DNA from: a virus
Lineage: Duplodnaviria > Heunggongvirae > Uroviricota > Caudoviricetes
Virus record (IMG/VR): IMGVR_UViG_2693429635_000026
Length of the DNA stretch: 8,466 nt
Strand: one strand, 5' to 3'
Below are positions 1,061 to 7,806 of the stretch, piece by piece (position 1 is the stretch's first letter; each line of letters starts with the position of its first letter). A program made the position numbers and the translations under genes. Under the pieces are notes generated by a model. It was not told the origin of the DNA and ran no database searches. It saw only the letters and a list, made by a program, of their open reading frames with translations.

Positions 1061-1188
1061 ATCATGATTGGACGGTGTAAGGACAACACCAACAAAAACA
1101 GGAAGTTAGCAGTCTCAGCAGGACACCGACCAGACGGTGAGGAGACAAAAAAGGATACGCAAAGGAGCCGCGGCTCTCAAGTGTGAAA

Positions 1189-1217
1189 GAAGCCCGCAAA
1201 TTGCGGGCTTTTTTATT
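1189..1217 (+). terminator. rho-independent terminator downstream of ssrA
   Basis: GC-rich hairpin AGCCCGC-aaatt-GCGGGCT (1191-1209) followed by a T-run TTTTTTATT. Confidence 0.6.
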
Positions 1218-1269
1218 GATCAGTCAACAATAAACAGTAACCGAATGAGAATTTAATAAGGATATTCAT

Positions 1270-2301
1270 ATGGAAGCTACTGTGGATTCGATTGATTTTC
1301 TGATCCGTAGTGAAGATGATTTTCTAAACTTTCTGGAAGAAATGAAAGCCCGAGAGGGGCTTGATTCTAAAGAGTTTATTTTCCCTAACGTAAAGTTTGC
1401 AGGCTGGCCATCCTTAGACATAAATGTAAAAGGAGAGCGGTATCATTCATCAATTACATCAGCAATGTTGTTTGGTATGTCAATGCTCAACGAGGAGATA
1501 CAGCGGGCGTTTGCAACCATACGATACGGATCGCAGAATCTTCAACGCTTGACTAATGAAGACAAGCAACGACTTGATATAAATTTTAAAATTAGCGAAG
1601 GTTCTAGTGATGCGGAAGGCACCACTGACAAGATCATCAACGCAGTAACTGATTTTTTGCGAGATACTATGTCTGGACTGAACGGCTGGCAGAAAATGCT
1701 TGTTATAATCACAATGGTTGGCGCGGCCAGCACATGTGGTTATCACTACATTTCAGAAAATGCCGTAACAGAAAGACATGCAACTGATCGGCAGGTTGAA
1801 ATTGCAAAAACCACATCCGATGGCATAAACAAAGCCATAGAAGCAACATTAGATTATAAAATCTATGGGAAATCAGCGATTAGCGATAAAGTTACTAGTC
1901 ACGGACAAGCAGGTAAAAGTGCTTTAGTGAAGCAATTAGCTGCTGATCCTACTGTCGAAACCGTGACTTTAGGAAATGAGAAACTAACACGACAAGACCT
2001 AAATACCTACAACAGCCGACAATCTGTAGATAGAGAACGTAAAGAACGAACTGATATATTTTCCATCAAAGGTGTAACCAGAACAGGGCCAACAAATCAG
2101 GATATTAATATTAACGTTGTTAGGGTCTCTAATGACGAATGCTTCACAATCAAAGCTTCAGCTGATGTTATCACCCAAGATGAGTTGACAGCTATTGTTG
2201 ACGCTTTGTCAAACAACTCTCATATTAAAATCAGTTACTTAGAGGTAATTGAAAAGGGTGCTGTTTCTATAGGTCAGTTCAACACTATTGTTTCAGAATA
2301 A
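1270..2301 (+). CDS. hypothetical protein, 343 aa, with a central hydrophobic (putative transmembrane) segment; no recognised domain
   Basis: Long uninterrupted ORF with a Shine-Dalgarno-like AAGGA about 8 nt upstream of the ATG (TAAGGATATTCATATG). AT-rich codon usage consistent along its length. The stretch WQKMLVIITMVGAASTCGYHYI near residues 140-161 is hydrophobic. The antisense ORFs 1480..1746 and 1542..1733 are shadows. Confidence 0.72.
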   Translation: MEATVDSIDFLIRSEDDFLNFLEEMKAREGLDSKEFIFPNVKFAGWPSLDINVKGERYHSSITSAMLFGMSMLNEEIQRAFATIRYGSQNLQRLTNEDKQRLDINFKISEGSSDAEGTTDKIINAVTDFLRDTMSGLNGWQKMLVIITMVGAASTCGYHYISENAVTERHATDRQVEIAKTTSDGINKAIEATLDYKIYGKSAISDKVTSHGQAGKSALVKQLAADPTVETVTLGNEKLTRQDLNTYNSRQSVDRERKERTDIFSIKGVTRTGPTNQDININVVRVSNDECFTIKASADVITQDELTAIVDALSNNSHIKISYLEVIEKGAVSIGQFNTIVSE

Positions 2302-2352
2302 TCACTTAACCCCATTTATGTCGGTTGAGGTTATAAGTCACGGAGACCAGAT

Positions 2353-2697
2353 ATGTCCTTAAAGTATGCACATGAAAAATTTCATACTGCAGTACTTACT
2401 CTTGCGGGCCATGGAAGTATTCAAGAACGCTTGATTAATTCGTATGTTTTTAGCCTTGGGCATCTTAAAACAGCCGATGATATTCCAAATGCCTTACAAA
2501 GCAGGTTCGATGAATTATGTAAGGAACTGACTAAGTTTGATGCCACTGGCGATGAGGGGCGAGTTCAAGCAACAGTATCAAAACTTAACGATTTCGAGAT
2601 CAATAAACTGATCGAAGATATTGTCAGTCTTAACGATGATATTTGCATGAAATTGGCTCTGACGGATGAGACTTACCAAGACATACACCAAAGTTAA
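2353..2697 (+). CDS. hypothetical protein, 114 aa, acidic and probably alpha-helical; likely co-transcribed with the upstream 343-aa ORF
   Basis: ATG at 2353 preceded by GGAGA about 7 nt upstream. Same strand as ORF 1270..2301 with a 51-bp gap, and followed by a hairpin terminator. No recognised motifs. Confidence 0.65.
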   Translation: MSLKYAHEKFHTAVLTLAGHGSIQERLINSYVFSLGHLKTADDIPNALQSRFDELCKELTKFDATGDEGRVQATVSKLNDFEINKLIEDIVSLNDDICMKLALTDETYQDIHQS

Positions 2698-2724
2698 TTG
2701 ATTAAATTCAAAAAGTTAACGTTC

Positions 2725-2750
2725 AACCAGCCAGTTTTTGGCTGGTTTAT
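2725..2750. terminator. putative bidirectional hairpin terminator between convergent genes
   Basis: AACCAGCC-agttttt-GGCTGGTT (8-bp stem, 2725-2747) followed by TTTATTGTC on the plus strand and flanked by an A/T tract on the other side. It lies between the stop of ORF 2353..2697 (+) and the stop of ORF 2782..2994 (-). Confidence 0.45.
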
Positions 2751-2781
2751 TGTCTTATAATATTCTTGCTCGAATGATGCA

Positions 2782-2994
2782 CTATTTATGATGTAATCCG
2801 GACATCAGTTCATGGACAAGATTATCTCTTTCATTGTGTTGCAACCGTAAATGCATAGCAAAAAGGTGAGCACTATCCTCATTCCTCTTCAAGCCATGCT
2901 GTTCAAGATACCCGAAAAAACGGCTTCTCTTATCCGCTATTTCCTGAGTCTGACGTGCAACATTTACCAAATTTTCTAGCGTTTTTCTTGGCAT
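2782..2994 (-). CDS. hypothetical small protein, 70 aa
   Basis: The minus-strand ATG at 2992-2994 is preceded by a strong Shine-Dalgarno AGGAGG (revcomp of CCTCCT at 3002-3007) at good spacing. Basic and His-rich; no family recognised. Confidence 0.5.
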   Translation of the reverse strand: MPRKTLENLVNVARQTQEIADKRSRFFGYLEQHGLKRNEDSAHLFAMHLRLQHNERDNLVHELMSGLHHK

Positions 2995-3192
2995 ACTATT
3001 TCCTCCTGAAATTGTTGTAATTCACTAGGATATTCATTTTAATTTGTATCATTTAGTACCAAAACCGCTATCAATTAACAAAGCCATCGTTGTGGTTTAC
3101 CTTGCAGCCGTTTTTTGTCATTGACTCTATGTGAAAATAATGAATCATCATGAGATTGGCTCACACGTTCTTGAATTCGACGAGCTGTGTCT

Positions 3193-3747
3193 TTATTTAT
3201 CTCCTGCCGGAAACCTCTGATACAAAGTCGATACGCCAACATCATAGATAATCGCAACTTTCTGGCGCGGAACTCCTGATGCAATTAATCGTCCGGCTTG
3301 TGCCCATTGTTCTGGTGTAAGTTTGGGACGACGTCCACCAATTCGTCCCTGTGCGCGAGCAGCTTCCAGTCCAGCTTTTGTTCGTTCAACAATCAGTTCT
3401 CGTTCCATTTCAGCCAGGGCCCCCATCACATGAAAGAAAAAGCGCCCCATTGGGGTACTGGTATCAATTGAATCCGTCAGACTACGAAAGTTGATGCCTC
3501 GTTCGCGCAACTCCTCCACCAGCACGACAAGATGCCGCATACTGCGCCCCAGTCGGTCCAGTTTCCAGACCACCAGCGTATCGCCTGCCGATAATGTCCT
3601 GAGCAGTTTTTTCAGTCCCGGCCTTTCGGACTTTGTACCGCTTATCTTGTCTTCAAAAATCAGCTCGCATCCTGCACAGTTCAGCGCATTACGTTGTAGA
3701 TCTGTGTTCTGGTCATTTGTTGACACACGTACATAGCCAATAAGCAT
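3193..3747 (-). CDS. pin: serine-recombinase DNA invertase, Pin/Gin/Hin/Cin family (184 aa)
   Basis: Translation from the internal Met (MLIGYVRVSTNDQNTDLQRNAL...GDTLVVWKLDRLGRSM...GINFRSLTDSIDTS...MGRFFFHVMGALAEMERELI...) has the resolvase/invertase catalytic N-terminus with the active-site Ser in VRVSTNDQ and a C-terminal HTH-like region. It is close to E. coli Pin as I recall it. I take the start as the ATG at 3745-3747 (SD AGGGAGA upstream) rather than the upstream Met at 3783. A gix/pix-like site lies 55 bp upstream. Confidence 0.93.
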   Translation of the reverse strand: MLIGYVRVSTNDQNTDLQRNALNCAGCELIFEDKISGTKSERPGLKKLLRTLSAGDTLVVWKLDRLGRSMRHLVVLVEELRERGINFRSLTDSIDTSTPMGRFFFHVMGALAEMERELIVERTKAGLEAARAQGRIGGRRPKLTPEQWAQAGRLIASGVPRQKVAIIYDVGVSTLYQRFPAGDK

Positions 3748-3773
3748 GGTAGATCTCCCTGACAAAAGCAGGA

Positions 3774-4268
3774 ATGATGCCATTTGCTCGTTATTTCTGC
3801 ATTTTCATAAACGTTGGTTTGGGAGAAGCGGCAAAACGAAATGTGGGCAACGGGGAAAACCAAATCCCTGATATGTCTTTCTGGACGGTTACTGGTGGCA
3901 ATGGAAATTTTGTGATTCGTCAACCTGACGGGCTAATCATTCAGATGGTTACTGTAAGTATAAGCGGTCCAGTGGCGATGAATGGAATGACTGATAATGC
4001 TTATGCCATTACAGGTTCTAATAAGTCTTATATTGCCACAGCCACATTGCCCTTTGTATTTCCTAATAAGGTGCTGGGCGTTATCCCTCTGGTATCAACA
4101 ACAGCTTATGGTGGTGTATCCAGTAATATTACAGGTTCATACGCGACGGCGGTTTGTTCTTTTGCCGCTGTCAGGGGGAATAATACGATTGTGTTCAAAG
4201 TCGACAAACCACTGAATGCAGCCTTTCCTTCAGATACCAGCGTCTCAGCGTTAATCATTGGACGGTAA
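3774..4268 (+). CDS. silent tail-fibre variable C-terminal cassette (Sv copy) with no constant N-terminal region
   Basis: From about 3816 onward the reading frame is identical to the C-terminal roughly 150 aa of the tail fibre gene at 7063..7806 ([17 protein letters not shown]...SALIIGR). The first roughly 14 codons (MMPFARYFCIFINV) are antisense read-through of the pin leader and are not part of the homologous sequence. Probably not expressed in this orientation. Confidence 0.5.
   Translation: MMPFARYFCIFINVGLGEAAKRNVGNGENQIPDMSFWTVTGGNGNFVIRQPDGLIIQMVTVSISGPVAMNGMTDNAYAITGSNKSYIATATLPFVFPNKVLGVIPLVSTTAYGGVSSNITGSYATAVCSFAAVRGNNTIVFKVDKPLNAAFPSDTSVSALIIGR
3802..3827 (+). other. invertase crossover site A (gix/hix/pix-like 26-bp site, proximal to pin)
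   Basis: TTTTCATAAACG-TT-GGTTTGGGAGAA. The half-sites fit the TTnTCnnAAACC pattern of Hin/Gin-family sites around a central 2-bp crossover. The inner half plus crossover (TTGGTTTGGGAGAA) is identical to sites B and C. Confidence 0.6.
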
Positions 4269-4270
4269 GA

Positions 4271-4714
4271 ATGAACTCAGTATTCTTTTCACCCGCAAGT
4301 AAAAGTTTTTATCTGCAAGAATTGTTTCCAGAATATGAGGATGCGGGAACGCTTCCTGATGATGTTATTGAAATTACCAGAGAAACATATGAGCAATTTC
4401 TTGGGCTGCATCCAGAAGGGAAAGAAATTGGCGCTGACAGTTCAGGACGGCCAATATGGATTAATTCCCCGCCGCCTTCAAAAGAGGATGAGATGCTGGC
4501 GGCTGAAATGAAAAAGATATCTTTGGTTTCAGAAGTCAATACCTACATCAATACCCATCAGTGGCCTGGCAAAGCTGCTATTGGTCGTCTGAAAGGTTAC
4601 GAGCTGGAACAATATAATTTATGGCTGGATTATCTGGACGCACTGGAACTGGTTGATACCTCCAGTGCTCCAGATATTGAATGGCCTACGCCTCCGGTAG
4701 TTCAGGCCAGATGA
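4271..4714 (+). CDS. tail fibre assembly protein (Mu U-like chaperone), copy A
   Basis: 147 aa with the Tfa-type C-terminal motif ...DTSSAPDIEWPTPP. Starts 2 bp after the Sv stop, suggesting translational coupling. Identical to the ORF at 6617..7060 (-). Confidence 0.82.
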   Translation: MNSVFFSPASKSFYLQELFPEYEDAGTLPDDVIEITRETYEQFLGLHPEGKEIGADSSGRPIWINSPPPSKEDEMLAAEMKKISLVSEVNTYINTHQWPGKAAIGRLKGYELEQYNLWLDYLDALELVDTSSAPDIEWPTPPVVQAR

Positions 4715-5291
4715 CATCCGGCGCGGTGCTGGTATCTGTTGCAGTCACCGCGTCAATGTAATCCAGCACAGCGTTAAGCCGGGTTGTTTCTGCCTGCGTC
4801 AGCTTCCGCCCGGCCTGCAATTTCAGCTGAATCAGACTAATGGAAGCCATAGCAGCATCAATCAGTGACTGGCGCCGTACTTCTGCCGCGTCTACTGCGG
4901 CGTTATGCTGTGCCTCAGTATCGGTCACCCATTTCTCACCATCCCATTTATCGTATGACGTTAACGGGGCGATAGTGGTTGTATTTTCAGGGTAATCACC
5001 CGGAACTGTGATTTCTTTTGATTCTCCTGTTTCGGTGCTATAGACGATTTCACCGCGATGGTCTGGCACATATTCCCATGAGTTAAAATCTGCAGAACGG
5101 CAAATTGCATAACCAGCTTTATATGAGCCAGGAGCATCTAAACAGGAACATGCCGGGATACCAACACCCACAGCAAGATATTCAGTTGATGTGGAAATAT
5201 ATTCCCGTGTTTCACCATCATAATTATAAACGGTAATGTCTCCGGCCTTTGTGGCGATGAGTTCATTATTTAATACAGCTTTACTTATCAT
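4686..5291 (-). CDS. tail fibre assembly protein (Mu U'-like chaperone), copy A
   Basis: 201 aa ending ...DTSTAPDVIWPELPEA (Tfa family C-terminal motif). Identical to the ORF at 6040..6645 (+). Its 3' end overlaps the 3' end of 4271..4714 convergently by 29 bp. Confidence 0.82.
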   Translation of the reverse strand: MISKAVLNNELIATKAGDITVYNYDGETREYISTSTEYLAVGVGIPACSCLDAPGSYKAGYAICRSADFNSWEYVPDHRGEIVYSTETGESKEITVPGDYPENTTTIAPLTSYDKWDGEKWVTDTEAQHNAAVDAAEVRRQSLIDAAMASISLIQLKLQAGRKLTQAETTRLNAVLDYIDAVTATDTSTAPDVIWPELPEA

Positions 5292-5570
5292 GCAGCCCTC
5301 ACAATATAATTAAAGGCGATGTTACGGGAGCGGGTTTCAGATGCTGTGCGAACTGAGCGAGATGCGTCGAATGTCCAGTTATAAGCGCCATAACCCTCAA
5401 TAATTTCGGCTTCCTTTAGACCTGTAGATAATACTTGCCCATGTTGACTAAATGGCCCTGAACTAAGTACGTCTCTAAAAAGCTGGGTACGCCCAAAAGA
5501 ACCAACAATATTCTGAATTGCATCATTCTGTGCAGATAATAAGTTACGACCAGAGTCAATCCCGCGCCCA
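5288..5570 (-). pseudogene. 5'-truncated copy of the tail-collar-type variable cassette Sv' (C-terminal roughly 93 codons, no start)
   Basis: Reverse complement of 5761..6043, which is the C-terminal part of ORF 5576..6043 (...ETRSRNIAFNYIVRAA). The duplication breakpoint at 5570/5571 cuts the cassette mid-gene, and there is no in-frame Met in the retained part. Confidence 0.55.
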
Positions 5571-5584
5571 TTGGTTTGGGAGAA
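5559..5584 (+). other. invertase crossover site C (conserved inner half and crossover, degenerate outer half)
   Basis: ATCCCGCGCCCA-TT-GGTTTGGGAGAA. The crossover and inner half are identical to sites A and B, but the outer half is a poor match. Recombination with site B would fuse the constant part of S in frame to Sv'. Confidence 0.55.
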
Positions 5585-6043
5585 GGTTCGGCATTACCCG
5601 TTGGTGTGCCTGTTCCGTGGCCTTCCGCCACTCCGCCAACGGGGTGGCTAAAATGTAACGGAGCAGTATTTTCTTCTGAAAAGTACCCAAATCTGGCAAA
5701 GGCTTACCCAACATTAAAATTACCAGATTTACGCGGTGAATTTATTCGTGGCTGGGATGATGGGCGCGGGATTGACTCTGGTCGTAACTTATTATCTGCA
5801 CAGAATGATGCAATTCAGAATATTGTTGGTTCTTTTGGGCGTACCCAGCTTTTTAGAGACGTACTTAGTTCAGGGCCATTTAGTCAACATGGGCAAGTAT
5901 TATCTACAGGTCTAAAGGAAGCCGAAATTATTGAGGGTTATGGCGCTTATAACTGGACATTCGACGCATCTCGCTCAGTTCGCACAGCATCTGAAACCCG
6001 CTCCCGTAACATCGCCTTTAATTATATTGTGAGGGCTGCATGA
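5576..6043 (+). CDS. alternative tail-fibre variable C-terminal cassette Sv' (phage tail-collar-like receptor-binding domain), currently unfused
   Basis: The translation carries motifs I recall from tail-fibre C-termini of the tail-collar type (ALPVGVPVPWPSATPPTGWLKCNGAVFSSEKYPNLA...LPDLRGEFIRGWDDGRGIDSGR...ETRSRNIAFNYIVRAA). The ORF-track start is a TTG lying inside site C, so the real product would be made only as a fusion after inversion. Its stop overlaps the downstream tfa start (ATGA). Confidence 0.75.
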   Translation: MGEGSALPVGVPVPWPSATPPTGWLKCNGAVFSSEKYPNLAKAYPTLKLPDLRGEFIRGWDDGRGIDSGRNLLSAQNDAIQNIVGSFGRTQLFRDVLSSGPFSQHGQVLSTGLKEAEIIEGYGAYNWTFDASRSVRTASETRSRNIAFNYIVRAA

Positions 6044-6645
6044 TAAGTAAAGCTGTATTAAATAATGAACTCATCGCCACAAAGGCCGGAGACATTACCG
6101 TTTATAATTATGATGGTGAAACACGGGAATATATTTCCACATCAACTGAATATCTTGCTGTGGGTGTTGGTATCCCGGCATGTTCCTGTTTAGATGCTCC
6201 TGGCTCATATAAAGCTGGTTATGCAATTTGCCGTTCTGCAGATTTTAACTCATGGGAATATGTGCCAGACCATCGCGGTGAAATCGTCTATAGCACCGAA
6301 ACAGGAGAATCAAAAGAAATCACAGTTCCGGGTGATTACCCTGAAAATACAACCACTATCGCCCCGTTAACGTCATACGATAAATGGGATGGTGAGAAAT
6401 GGGTGACCGATACTGAGGCACAGCATAACGCCGCAGTAGACGCGGCAGAAGTACGGCGCCAGTCACTGATTGATGCTGCTATGGCTTCCATTAGTCTGAT
6501 TCAGCTGAAATTGCAGGCCGGGCGGAAGCTGACGCAGGCAGAAACAACCCGGCTTAACGCTGTGCTGGATTACATTGACGCGGTGACTGCAACAGATACC
6601 AGCACCGCGCCGGATGTCATCTGGCCTGAACTACCGGAGGCGTAG
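6040..6645 (+). CDS. tail fibre assembly protein (U'-like), copy B, cognate chaperone of Sv'
   Basis: 201 aa, Tfa C-terminal motif, start overlapping the Sv' stop (ATGA), SD GAGGG upstream. Confidence 0.88.
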   Translation: MISKAVLNNELIATKAGDITVYNYDGETREYISTSTEYLAVGVGIPACSCLDAPGSYKAGYAICRSADFNSWEYVPDHRGEIVYSTETGESKEITVPGDYPENTTTIAPLTSYDKWDGEKWVTDTEAQHNAAVDAAEVRRQSLIDAAMASISLIQLKLQAGRKLTQAETTRLNAVLDYIDAVTATDTSTAPDVIWPELPEA

Positions 6646-7060
6646 GCCATTCAATATCTGGAGCACTGGAGGTATCAACCAGTTCCAGTGCGTCCAGATA
6701 ATCCAGCCATAAATTATATTGTTCCAGCTCGTAACCTTTCAGACGACCAATAGCAGCTTTGCCAGGCCACTGATGGGTATTGATGTAGGTATTGACTTCT
6801 GAAACCAAAGATATCTTTTTCATTTCAGCCGCCAGCATCTCATCCTCTTTTGAAGGCGGCGGGGAATTAATCCATATTGGCCGTCCTGAACTGTCAGCGC
6901 CAATTTCTTTCCCTTCTGGATGCAGCCCAAGAAATTGCTCATATGTTTCTCTGGTAATTTCAATAACATCATCAGGAAGCGTTCCCGCATCCTCATATTC
7001 TGGAAACAATTCTTGCAGATAAAAACTTTTACTTGCGGGTGAAAAGAATACTGAGTTCAT
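6617..7060 (-). CDS. tail fibre assembly protein (U-like), copy B, cognate chaperone of the expressed tail fibre
   Basis: 147 aa. Starts 2 bp after the stop of the tail fibre gene at 7063..7806 on the same strand. Tfa-type C-terminus. Confidence 0.88.
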   Translation of the reverse strand: MNSVFFSPASKSFYLQELFPEYEDAGTLPDDVIEITRETYEQFLGLHPEGKEIGADSSGRPIWINSPPPSKEDEMLAAEMKKISLVSEVNTYINTHQWPGKAAIGRLKGYELEQYNLWLDYLDALELVDTSSAPDIEWPTPPVVQAR

Positions 7061-7062
7061 TC

Positions 7063-7806
7063 TTACCGTCCAATGATTAACGCTGAGACGCTGGTATCTG
7101 AAGGAAAGGCTGCATTCAGTGGTTTGTCGACTTTGAACACAATCGTATTATTCCCCCTGACAGCGGCAAAAGAACAAACCGCCGTCGCGTATGAACCTGT
7201 AATATTACTGGATACACCACCATAAGCTGTTGTTGATACCAGAGGGATAACGCCCAGCACCTTATTAGGAAATACAAAGGGCAATGTGGCTGTGGCAATA
7301 TAAGACTTATTAGAACCTGTAATGGCATAAGCATTATCAGTCATTCCATTCATCGCCACTGGACCGCTTATACTTACAGTAACCATCTGAATGATTAGCC
7401 CGTCAGGTTGACGAATCACAAAATTTCCATTGCCACCAGTAACCGTCCAGAAAGACATATCAGGGATTTGGTTTTCCCCGTTGCCCACATTTCGTTTTGC
7501 CGCTTCTCCCAAACCAAGGTTTTCGAGAGCCGTTTTCACCGTGCCATCAGATTTGATATCGCCAAACGGATTCTTGCGGCTTAACAGCAGCGCACGAAGC
7601 GCGGTAAGCAGCTGGTCATGCCGCCCCTTCTCCAGGCTGGCACCGGATGCCTCCACCACGCTGCAGAGTTCTTCCTGCAACATGTCAAAGTAGTCATCAT
7701 CCAGATCGGTGGCAGGTGTGCCGGTCTGGGGGTTACCACGGGTAAAACCGTTCTTACCCGCGCCGAACTTATCCTTCTGCGCGGTTTTCGTGTCTATACG
7801 ATGCAT
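7063..7806 (-). CDS. phage tail fibre protein S (constant N-terminal part 7518..7806 fused to variable part Sv 7063..7517), 247 aa
   Basis: ATG at 7804-7806 (minus strand) with SD GGAG upstream, immediately after the stop of the upstream tail gene. Crossover site B lies inside the ORF at the ...ENLG|LGEAA... junction, as expected for Mu S, P1 and e14-type invertible tail fibre genes. Confidence 0.88.
7504..7529 (+). other. invertase crossover site B (gix/pix-like, inside the tail fibre gene at the constant/variable boundary)
   Basis: Plus strand TTCTCCCAAACC-AA-GGTTTTCGAGAG. Its reverse complement CTCTCGAAAACC-TT-GGTTTGGGAGAA is inverted relative to sites A and C, with both half-sites fitting the TTnTCnnAAACC pattern. 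Confidence 0.65.

Follow-up and report, generated by a model that had tools for sequence, protein, structure and literature searches.

We conclude with high confidence, from the comparison of homologous sequences, that orf70 is a real protein-coding gene under purifying selection. It is a 70-amino-acid (aa) open reading frame (ORF) in a stretch of 8,466 nucleotides (nt) of Caudoviricetes DNA (IMG/VR record IMGVR_UViG_2693429635_000026; this whole stretch is called the window). It is probably an independently translated accessory ('moron'-type) gene of the prophage end, and would encode a small helical binding protein. The ORF itself was already annotated as hypothetical: it corresponds to an existing RefSeq entry, WP_001137529.1, labelled hypothetical protein and annotated in NZ_CP021844.1, and a literature search found no paper that mentions WP_001137529. 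New are the evidence for a real gene, the recognition of a small orphan family and the fixed place of this family beside attachment (att) sites. An initial annotation made from the window alone had described a convergent 70-aa ORF with an AGGAGG ribosome-binding site, located between a cargo cassette and the DNA invertase gene pin. This description was exact as to coordinates and to the 7-nt spacer between AGGAGG and the start codon; the ORF and the cassette converge, and pin runs in the same direction as the ORF.

The orf70 family and its predicted product

Homologues were sought with phmmer, run exhaustively against 1.84 billion representatives, and then by profile searches. The phmmer search returned five diverged homologues of 67-76 aa, with 40-58% identity to orf70, and the profile searches extended the family to about 17-19 clusters, found in Escherichia, Salmonella, Citrobacter, Pantoea and Scandinavium. 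No further members were obtained in the profile searches even at an expectation value (E) <= 1, so that the family is closed. Word-indexed searches with orf70 retrieved near-identical copies only. The orf70 family is small and unnamed, has no Pfam model and is restricted to prophages of Enterobacteriaceae.

The family alignment has no internal gaps. Conserved motifs are MPRKT, ARQTQ, R-x-R-F/Y, L30, RNE-x-SAH-x-FA, R56 and LV-x-x-LMSG, and the invariant residues are A13, L30, A42, A46, R56, L59, V60 and L63. The ratio of non-synonymous to synonymous substitution rates (dN/dS) was 0.13-0.32 across six coding sequences of the family, in the pairs with unsaturated dS, and codon differences among the six amounted to 0.54-0.77 at the third position versus 0.22-0.53 at positions 1 and 2. 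GGAG, AGGAG or AGGAGG stands 5-9 nt before the ATG in most diverged homologues, with weaker purine-rich sites in L015 and L022 (loci are designated by L numbers). In the window, AGGAGG occurs once on the two strands together, at orf70. A single occurrence is by itself not above chance (2.5 expected), and the orf70 site carries weight because it is well placed and because most diverged homologues have a site at the equivalent position. The initial annotation had proposed a small real gene, to be judged by conservation of its reading frame, and this proposal is borne out, since homologues of as little as 40% identity retain the reading frame, its length and the ribosome-binding site, with the low dN/dS given above. 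Over 1000 contigs carry the common allele of orf70 intact, and the rare variants are nearly all full length; orf70 DNA is present in 46 of 5426 complete E. coli genomes, at >= 99% identity in each.

The window protein has an isoelectric point (pI) of 9.39 and is hydrophilic, with a grand average of hydropathy (GRAVY) of -0.9; it contains seven His, no Cys and no membrane segment, and 8 of its 11 Lys and Arg residues fall within residues 1-37. It had been called basic and His-rich in the initial annotation. Basicity is common to the family (pI > 8 in 13 of 16 members), and His-richness is not a family trait, as the other members have 0-4 His; their Cys count is 0-2. AlphaFold gave a helical hairpin from the single sequence, with a predicted local distance difference test (pLDDT) score of 82. 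When the family alignment was supplied, it gave three helices, at residues 4-33, 39-48 and 53-65 (pLDDT 78). The orf70 product is predicted to be a soluble, basic, all-helical protein of 70 aa.

As had been stated initially, this protein could not be placed in a named family. Neither the orf70 protein nor the 16 family members gave any significant match in Pfam, NCBIfam, PADLOC or PHROGs, and a PDB sequence search with the family profile returned noise only (E >= 0.075). No significant match was obtained in a fold search with the predicted structure; a Foldseek match to the PezA antitoxin was below threshold (E = 6.9). None of the 16 members matched a helix-turn-helix (HTH) Pfam model at E <= 1, and at the same E value no Phage_int_SAM or excisionase match was found in Pfam among the family members. 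One PHROG excisionase match, in 1 of 16 members, was not significant (E = 0.15). Two candidate relationships were discarded. A likeness to AsiA-like anti-sigma factors (PHROG 1166) was rejected (E = 0.11 for the window protein, a single member of 16 matching), and a recombinase core-binding (SAM-like) domain was unsupported, the hhalign probability being 3% for the N-terminal domain of XerD and 0.1% for that of XerC.

Location of orf70 homologues at prophage ends

Diverged orf70 homologues are solitary, and in most loci the homologue is the last gene of the prophage arm, the one on the tail-fibre side of a lambdoid/e14-like prophage. In L014, L035 and L041, the 3' 57 nt of a leuZ-type transfer RNA gene (tRNA-Leu) with its terminator are found 141-144 nt past the stop codon, with chromosomal genes beyond. 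In L015, L023-L027, L036 and L038, a 130-141-nt fragment of the 3' end of icd is found 161-362 nt past the stop. These tRNA-Leu and icd fragments are attR-type junctions. In L036, an IMG/VR contig of an unintegrated phage, repeated CCCCAAAA-type motifs come after the icd fragment, and beyond them lie convergent genes for an integrase (Int, with the lambda-type arm-binding domain Arm-DNA-bind_1) and an excisionase (Xis, Exc family); this locus is an unrecombined attP arrangement, orfX -> attP <- int <- xis. The DNA from the stop codon to the tRNA-Leu core is conserved in blocks (TTCGCCATTG ... ATGGCGAAAAA ... ATAACACGCATG) that look like arm-type sites, a putative assignment; partly decayed copies of the same blocks persist in phages that now use icd.

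Short repeated motifs were observed in several loci. Four copies of TTTGGGGGCGT follow the homologue of L017 (positions 6223-6300 of that locus), complementary TCCCCAAAA repeats are present beside int in L036 (about 8720-8790), and short repeats also occur in L044 and at the 3' end of L022. These repeats look like arm-type sites at which the integrase of icd-specific phages would bind. Direct fusion of the homologue to the repeats, next to frmR, is seen in L017 and L044, and these loci appear to be deleted prophage remnants.

Upstream neighbours of the homologues vary, and include SRAP, DinI and UmuD genes, tail fibre and tail spike genes, ars genes and a terminase remnant. A fragment of a different kind was observed 75-88 nt upstream of the homologue ATG in L014, L022, L023-L027, L035 and L036, and 93-96 nt upstream in L015, L042 and L043. 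It consists of either the reverse-oriented 3' end of a tRNA-Pro gene (47-55 nt), placed after a hairpin, or the 3'-terminal 26-28 nt of ssrA, at a near-constant distance from the gene. We take the tRNA-Pro to be proL, on the basis of 89-100% identity to an E. coli proL sequence. The genes and the spacer DNA are strongly diverged while these upstream fragments are near-perfect, and the fragments may be fossil or second att cores.

In two respects the window copy departs from its relatives: a cassette of two genes, orf343 and orf114, is interposed between orf70 and the att site, here ssrA, and the upstream side abuts an 84-nt yedL-like remnant.

Layout of the window and expression signals

The order in the window is smpB (1-483), ssrA, orf343, orf114, a hairpin, orf70, pin, an invertible tail-fibre region and a Mu gp48/YmfQ-type baseplate gene (Table 1). 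The window enters the right end of a prophage integrated in ssrA, the gene for transfer-messenger RNA (tmRNA); tmRNA was the only Rfam match, and no RNA family was detected in or near orf70.

Table 1. Positions of orf70, its associated signals and neighbouring features in the window
Feature	Position	Strand	Remarks
orf70 coding sequence	2994->2782	minus	ATG at 2994, TAG stop 2782-2784, 70 aa; from ORF list and sequence
Shine-Dalgarno AGGAGG	3007-3002	minus	7 nt 5' of orf70 ATG
orf70-specific leader, putative promoter region	2995-3104	minus	110 nt; upstream DNA AT-rich, G+C content 0.35
Best -10 candidate, TATCCT	3032-3027	minus	Aligns with TATACT in Citrobacter-type homologues
Alternative -10 candidate, TAAAAT	3041-3036	minus	
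9-base-pair GC-rich hairpin (AACCAGCCA/TGGCTGGTT)	2725-2747	both	Between convergent stops of orf114 and orf70
ssrA (tmRNA)	698-1060	plus	Integration target of the orf70-carrying prophage; ARAGORN and Rfam
orf343	1270-2301	plus	Cargo cassette, convergent with orf70; context, not a conserved partner
orf114	2353-2697	plus	Cargo cassette, convergent with orf70; context, not a conserved partner
pin (serine DNA invertase)	3747->3193	minus	Pfam Resolvase and HTH_7; annotated pinE
Remnant of yedL-like GNAT gene 3' end, with downstream DNA	3105-3188	plus	84 nt, just 3' of pin stop

orf70 lies 198 nt downstream of pin, and its G+C content is 0.34-0.40 versus 0.50-0.55 for pin and host DNA. The last ~75 nt before the orf70 ATG align with those of Citrobacter-type homologues, whose proteins are only ~49% identical, and include a shared AAAATGAATAT(A/C)CT block. 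TATAAT is present 30-36 nt before the ATG in L014, L035 and L036, the same distance as TATCCT in orf70. No -35 element could be recognised in the orf70 leader, which plausibly holds a putative -35-less promoter. An extended -10 candidate, 'TGaTACAAT', was dropped, as the actual sequence upstream of orf70 is TGATACAAA. A LexA box was sought upstream of orf70, since DinI, UmuD and SRAP genes adjoin the homologues, and none was seen by eye.

Between pin and orf70 the scan detected no terminator, and the intergenic DNA folded no better than shuffled sequences (z = 0.46); read-through from pin is therefore possible. The hairpin between orf114 and orf70, 35 nt past the orf70 stop, has a folding energy of -18.6 kcal/mol, and z is -3.2 for the minus and -2.2 for the plus strand. 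It is terminator-like on the plus strand, the only one on which the terminator scan scores it; on the minus strand it is less canonical, and the U-run begins 10 nt past the stem.

The 84 nt next to the pin stop match, at 76-84% identity, the final 49 nt of yedL and the next 35 nt in 1282 E. coli genomes; in K-12 the matching position is within yedK-yedL. They are a relic of a yedK(SRAP)-yedL-type cargo block, and mark the upstream limit of orf70-specific sequence. The remnant fits the loss of a yedK(SRAP)-yedL-type block like that beside homologues elsewhere; intact SRAP genes were observed adjoining orf70 homologues in other species.

Three further observations concern the surroundings of the gene. 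At the ssrA side, block homology with some loci starts at 1025, within the 3' end of ssrA. In these loci (L002, L006 and L034) the block is not beside ssrA, and what comes next, beyond ~1025-1058, is an integrase-bearing element or a P4-like satellite (primase, Ash, AlpA). This points to islands arranged in tandem at ssrA, whose junction falls about 36 nt within the 3' end of that gene. At the other side, a perfect (100%) 1763-nt inverted repeat (3809-5571 and 5760-7522, 188-nt spacer) covers the pin-invertible tail-fibre/tfa genes, so that 147-aa, 201-aa and tail-fibre C-terminal ORFs each occur twice, in mirror image; the related loci L001 and L006 have one ordinary invertible segment. The repeat could be a true duplication-inversion or an assembly artefact of the switching segment. 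Lastly, NZ_CP148395.1, a 2637-bp (base pairs) sequence labelled plasmid in a complete E. coli assembly, corresponds to ~1177-3813 of the window and carries orf343, orf114, orf70 and pin only. Its ends are the ssrA-proximal junction and the inversion crossover beside pin, and it is most likely a repeat-bounded assembly fragment, not a replicon.

Proposed role of orf70 and comparison with known systems

As an accessory gene of the prophage end, orf70 would be expressed either from a weak -35-less promoter in the conserved 75-nt leader or by read-through from pin, and its product would act stoichiometrically by binding another macromolecule. We tentatively prefer nucleic-acid binding, because of the basic N-terminal arm (MPRKT), the conserved Arg, Gln, Thr and Asn residues of helix 1 (ARQTQ, R23, R25, RNE) and a C-terminal helix pair that may be HTH-like. 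Binding of a host or phage protein is a close second choice, likewise tentative. In the window orf70 keeps its slot at the prophage end (tail fibres, pin, orf70), and here a convergent two-gene cassette has been interposed between it and ssrA.

Several points weigh against the accessory-gene reading. On the strand of orf70 no promoter passed a strict sigma-70 scan; the AT-rich upstream region noted in the initial annotation is there (Table 1), and of the promoter that it might hold only -10-like hexamers were found. The E. coli copies are a single haplotype, with >= 98.9% identity, and for this reason the lineage of the window gives no independent evidence of selection. A tblastn search of 50,697 cultured phage records, with three family members as queries, found no member of the family, so that a role in a viable phage is conjectural. 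Finally, constant closeness to att cores could reflect a recombination-related role instead of generic cargo.

This last point leads to the alternative that orf70 encodes an att-site accessory factor, a small DNA-binding protein acting on the neighbouring arm, either as an architectural or directionality factor or as an integration-coupled regulator. It was suggested by the strict address of the family and by a faint likeness to recombinase domains. An att core was found 141-362 nt downstream in 9 of the 13 diverged loci tested, and in L022, L042 and L043, whose contigs end before the downstream core, the tRNA-Pro or ssrA 3' fragment stands 88-96 nt upstream. The block conservation of the arm-like DNA past the stop, the convergence of the homologue with int-xis across attP in L036, and the basic protein with its conserved Arg, Gln and Thr residues also argue for such a factor. 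Against it, the hhalign comparison with the XerD and XerC N-terminal domains gave very low probabilities, as reported above, and a Phage_int_SAM or excisionase match was significant in no member, the lone PHROG excisionase hit included. An Exc-family Xis is already present beside int in L036, in the window orf70 and ssrA are 1.7 kb apart and the gene has no arm-like repeats beside it, and the last slot before att also gathers unrelated cargo, such as mcrA in e14. We therefore consider such a role improbable, and give equally little weight to its more specific form, in which the family would be a previously unrecognised small helical att-associated DNA-binding factor, located opposite int across attP and shaping or sensing the recombination site. 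If true, this would explain the place of the gene beside att cores, which are of four or more specificities (tRNA-Leu, icd, tRNA-Pro and ssrA), and the presence of near-perfect tRNA or tmRNA 3' fragments 75-96 nt upstream of genes diverged to 40-58% identity.

Other explanations tie orf70 to its present neighbours or deny that it is a gene. orf70, orf114 and orf343 are always together in E. coli (in the same 46 genomes and in all 16 near-identical loci), one hairpin is common to their convergent ends, and orf343 has phage homologues in the position of an exclusion gene. It belongs to PHROG 6191 (E = 7e-38), a family without assigned function, and its phage homologues, in phi458 (46% identity) and in the PhiR12 series (26%), stand alone directly after cI and before N. 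This is a classic exclusion-gene position, that of rexAB in lambda, and makes orf343 a candidate lysogen-expressed exclusion gene. orf70 could then be the third component, a regulator or antidote, of a three-gene system such as a prophage exclusion or defence module. We think this unlikely, as the joint presence is that of one young haplotype (98.9-100% identity) and not a repeated association, and neither orf343 nor orf114 lies near any diverged orf70 homologue. Two proteins compared with orf114, Orf10 of phi458 and a neighbour of 114 aa in L041, are unrelated to it. The orf343 homologues of phi458 and PhiR12 come without an annotated orf70-like gene, no relatives of orf114 were detectable in these phages, and no PADLOC model matches any of the three genes. 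By these comparisons, orf70 is not a conserved part of the cassette, nor of a pin module. The initial annotation had also suggested a toxin/antitoxin component, for which the small size of orf70, its location at the end of a mobile element and the sub-threshold PezA match could be invoked. This suggestion is unsupported, and we regard it as very improbable: no small co-directional gene is adjacent in the window or conserved at any homologue locus, the homologues being solitary in all diverged contexts without a travelling partner; no toxin-antitoxin or defence model of Pfam, NCBIfam or PADLOC matches; the hydrophilic protein is unlike type I toxins; and Rfam detected no antisense RNA family. 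It is just as hard to credit that orf70 is a chance frame or the decayed fragment of a larger gene, with a fortuitous Shine-Dalgarno sequence. The lone AGGAGG at chance level, the many short ORFs that arise in AT-rich DNA and the lack of named relatives would agree with this, but full-length homologues exist in five genera, with conserved motifs and Shine-Dalgarno sequences and with dN/dS well below 1, and no longer protein has the domain. The sole long match, to 7 stretches of the 1959-aa P0008, was discarded as a repeat artefact, P0008 being a eukaryotic protein with BRCA2-like BRC repeats.

Taken alone, orf70 is another uncharacterised small prophage protein, probably ordinary cargo, of limited practical importance. 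The ORF call is secure and annotations should retain it; some 17-19 'hypothetical proteins', now scattered, can be brought together in one family. Because of its strict address, as the last gene before att in most loci examined, next to differing integration modules, the family is useful for recognising where prophages end, and it offers a workable case in which to examine whether genes so placed are more than passengers. The orf343/orf114 cassette is separate from orf70 and is to be analysed as a candidate exclusion module of its own.

Among known systems, small basic recombination directionality factors (the lambda Xis/Exc family, TorI, Cox) resemble orf70 in being basic proteins of 55-100 aa encoded close to the attachment site. 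They differ in that orf70 has no Exc or winged-helix match and a predicted all-helical fold, and in that the orf70 family lies opposite int across attP, with a canonical Xis present in L036. A regulator role of orf70 is possible; compared with Xre/Cro-type HTH regulators, the family has an invariant Arg (R56) where a buried hydrophobic residue is expected, and the window protein has an Arg at the turn-Gly position.

The closest parallel in layout is the defective prophage e14 of E. coli K-12, with the order pinE, mcrA, icd 3' fragment/attR. orf70 fills the mcrA slot, that of an accessory gene directly after pin at the tail-fibre end, and orf70 homologues precede the icd 3' fragment as mcrA does. 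The two genes are unrelated in sequence: McrA (277 aa) is an HNH endonuclease known to act in restriction, whereas orf70 would encode a 70-aa helical protein and is parted from its att site (ssrA, not icd) by another cassette. More generally, orf70 recalls the prophage 'morons' or lambda b-region accessory genes, a concept reportedly due to Hendrix, Juhala and co-workers. Like these, it is an apparently dispensable extra gene between tail-fibre genes and att, with a G+C content below that of its surroundings, a hairpin past its stop and a patchy presence (46 of 5426 E. coli genomes, with mcrA instead in e14). The defining trait of a moron, its own promoter, is only putative for orf70, and, unlike most morons, the orf70 family holds one fixed position across phages of differing integration specificity.
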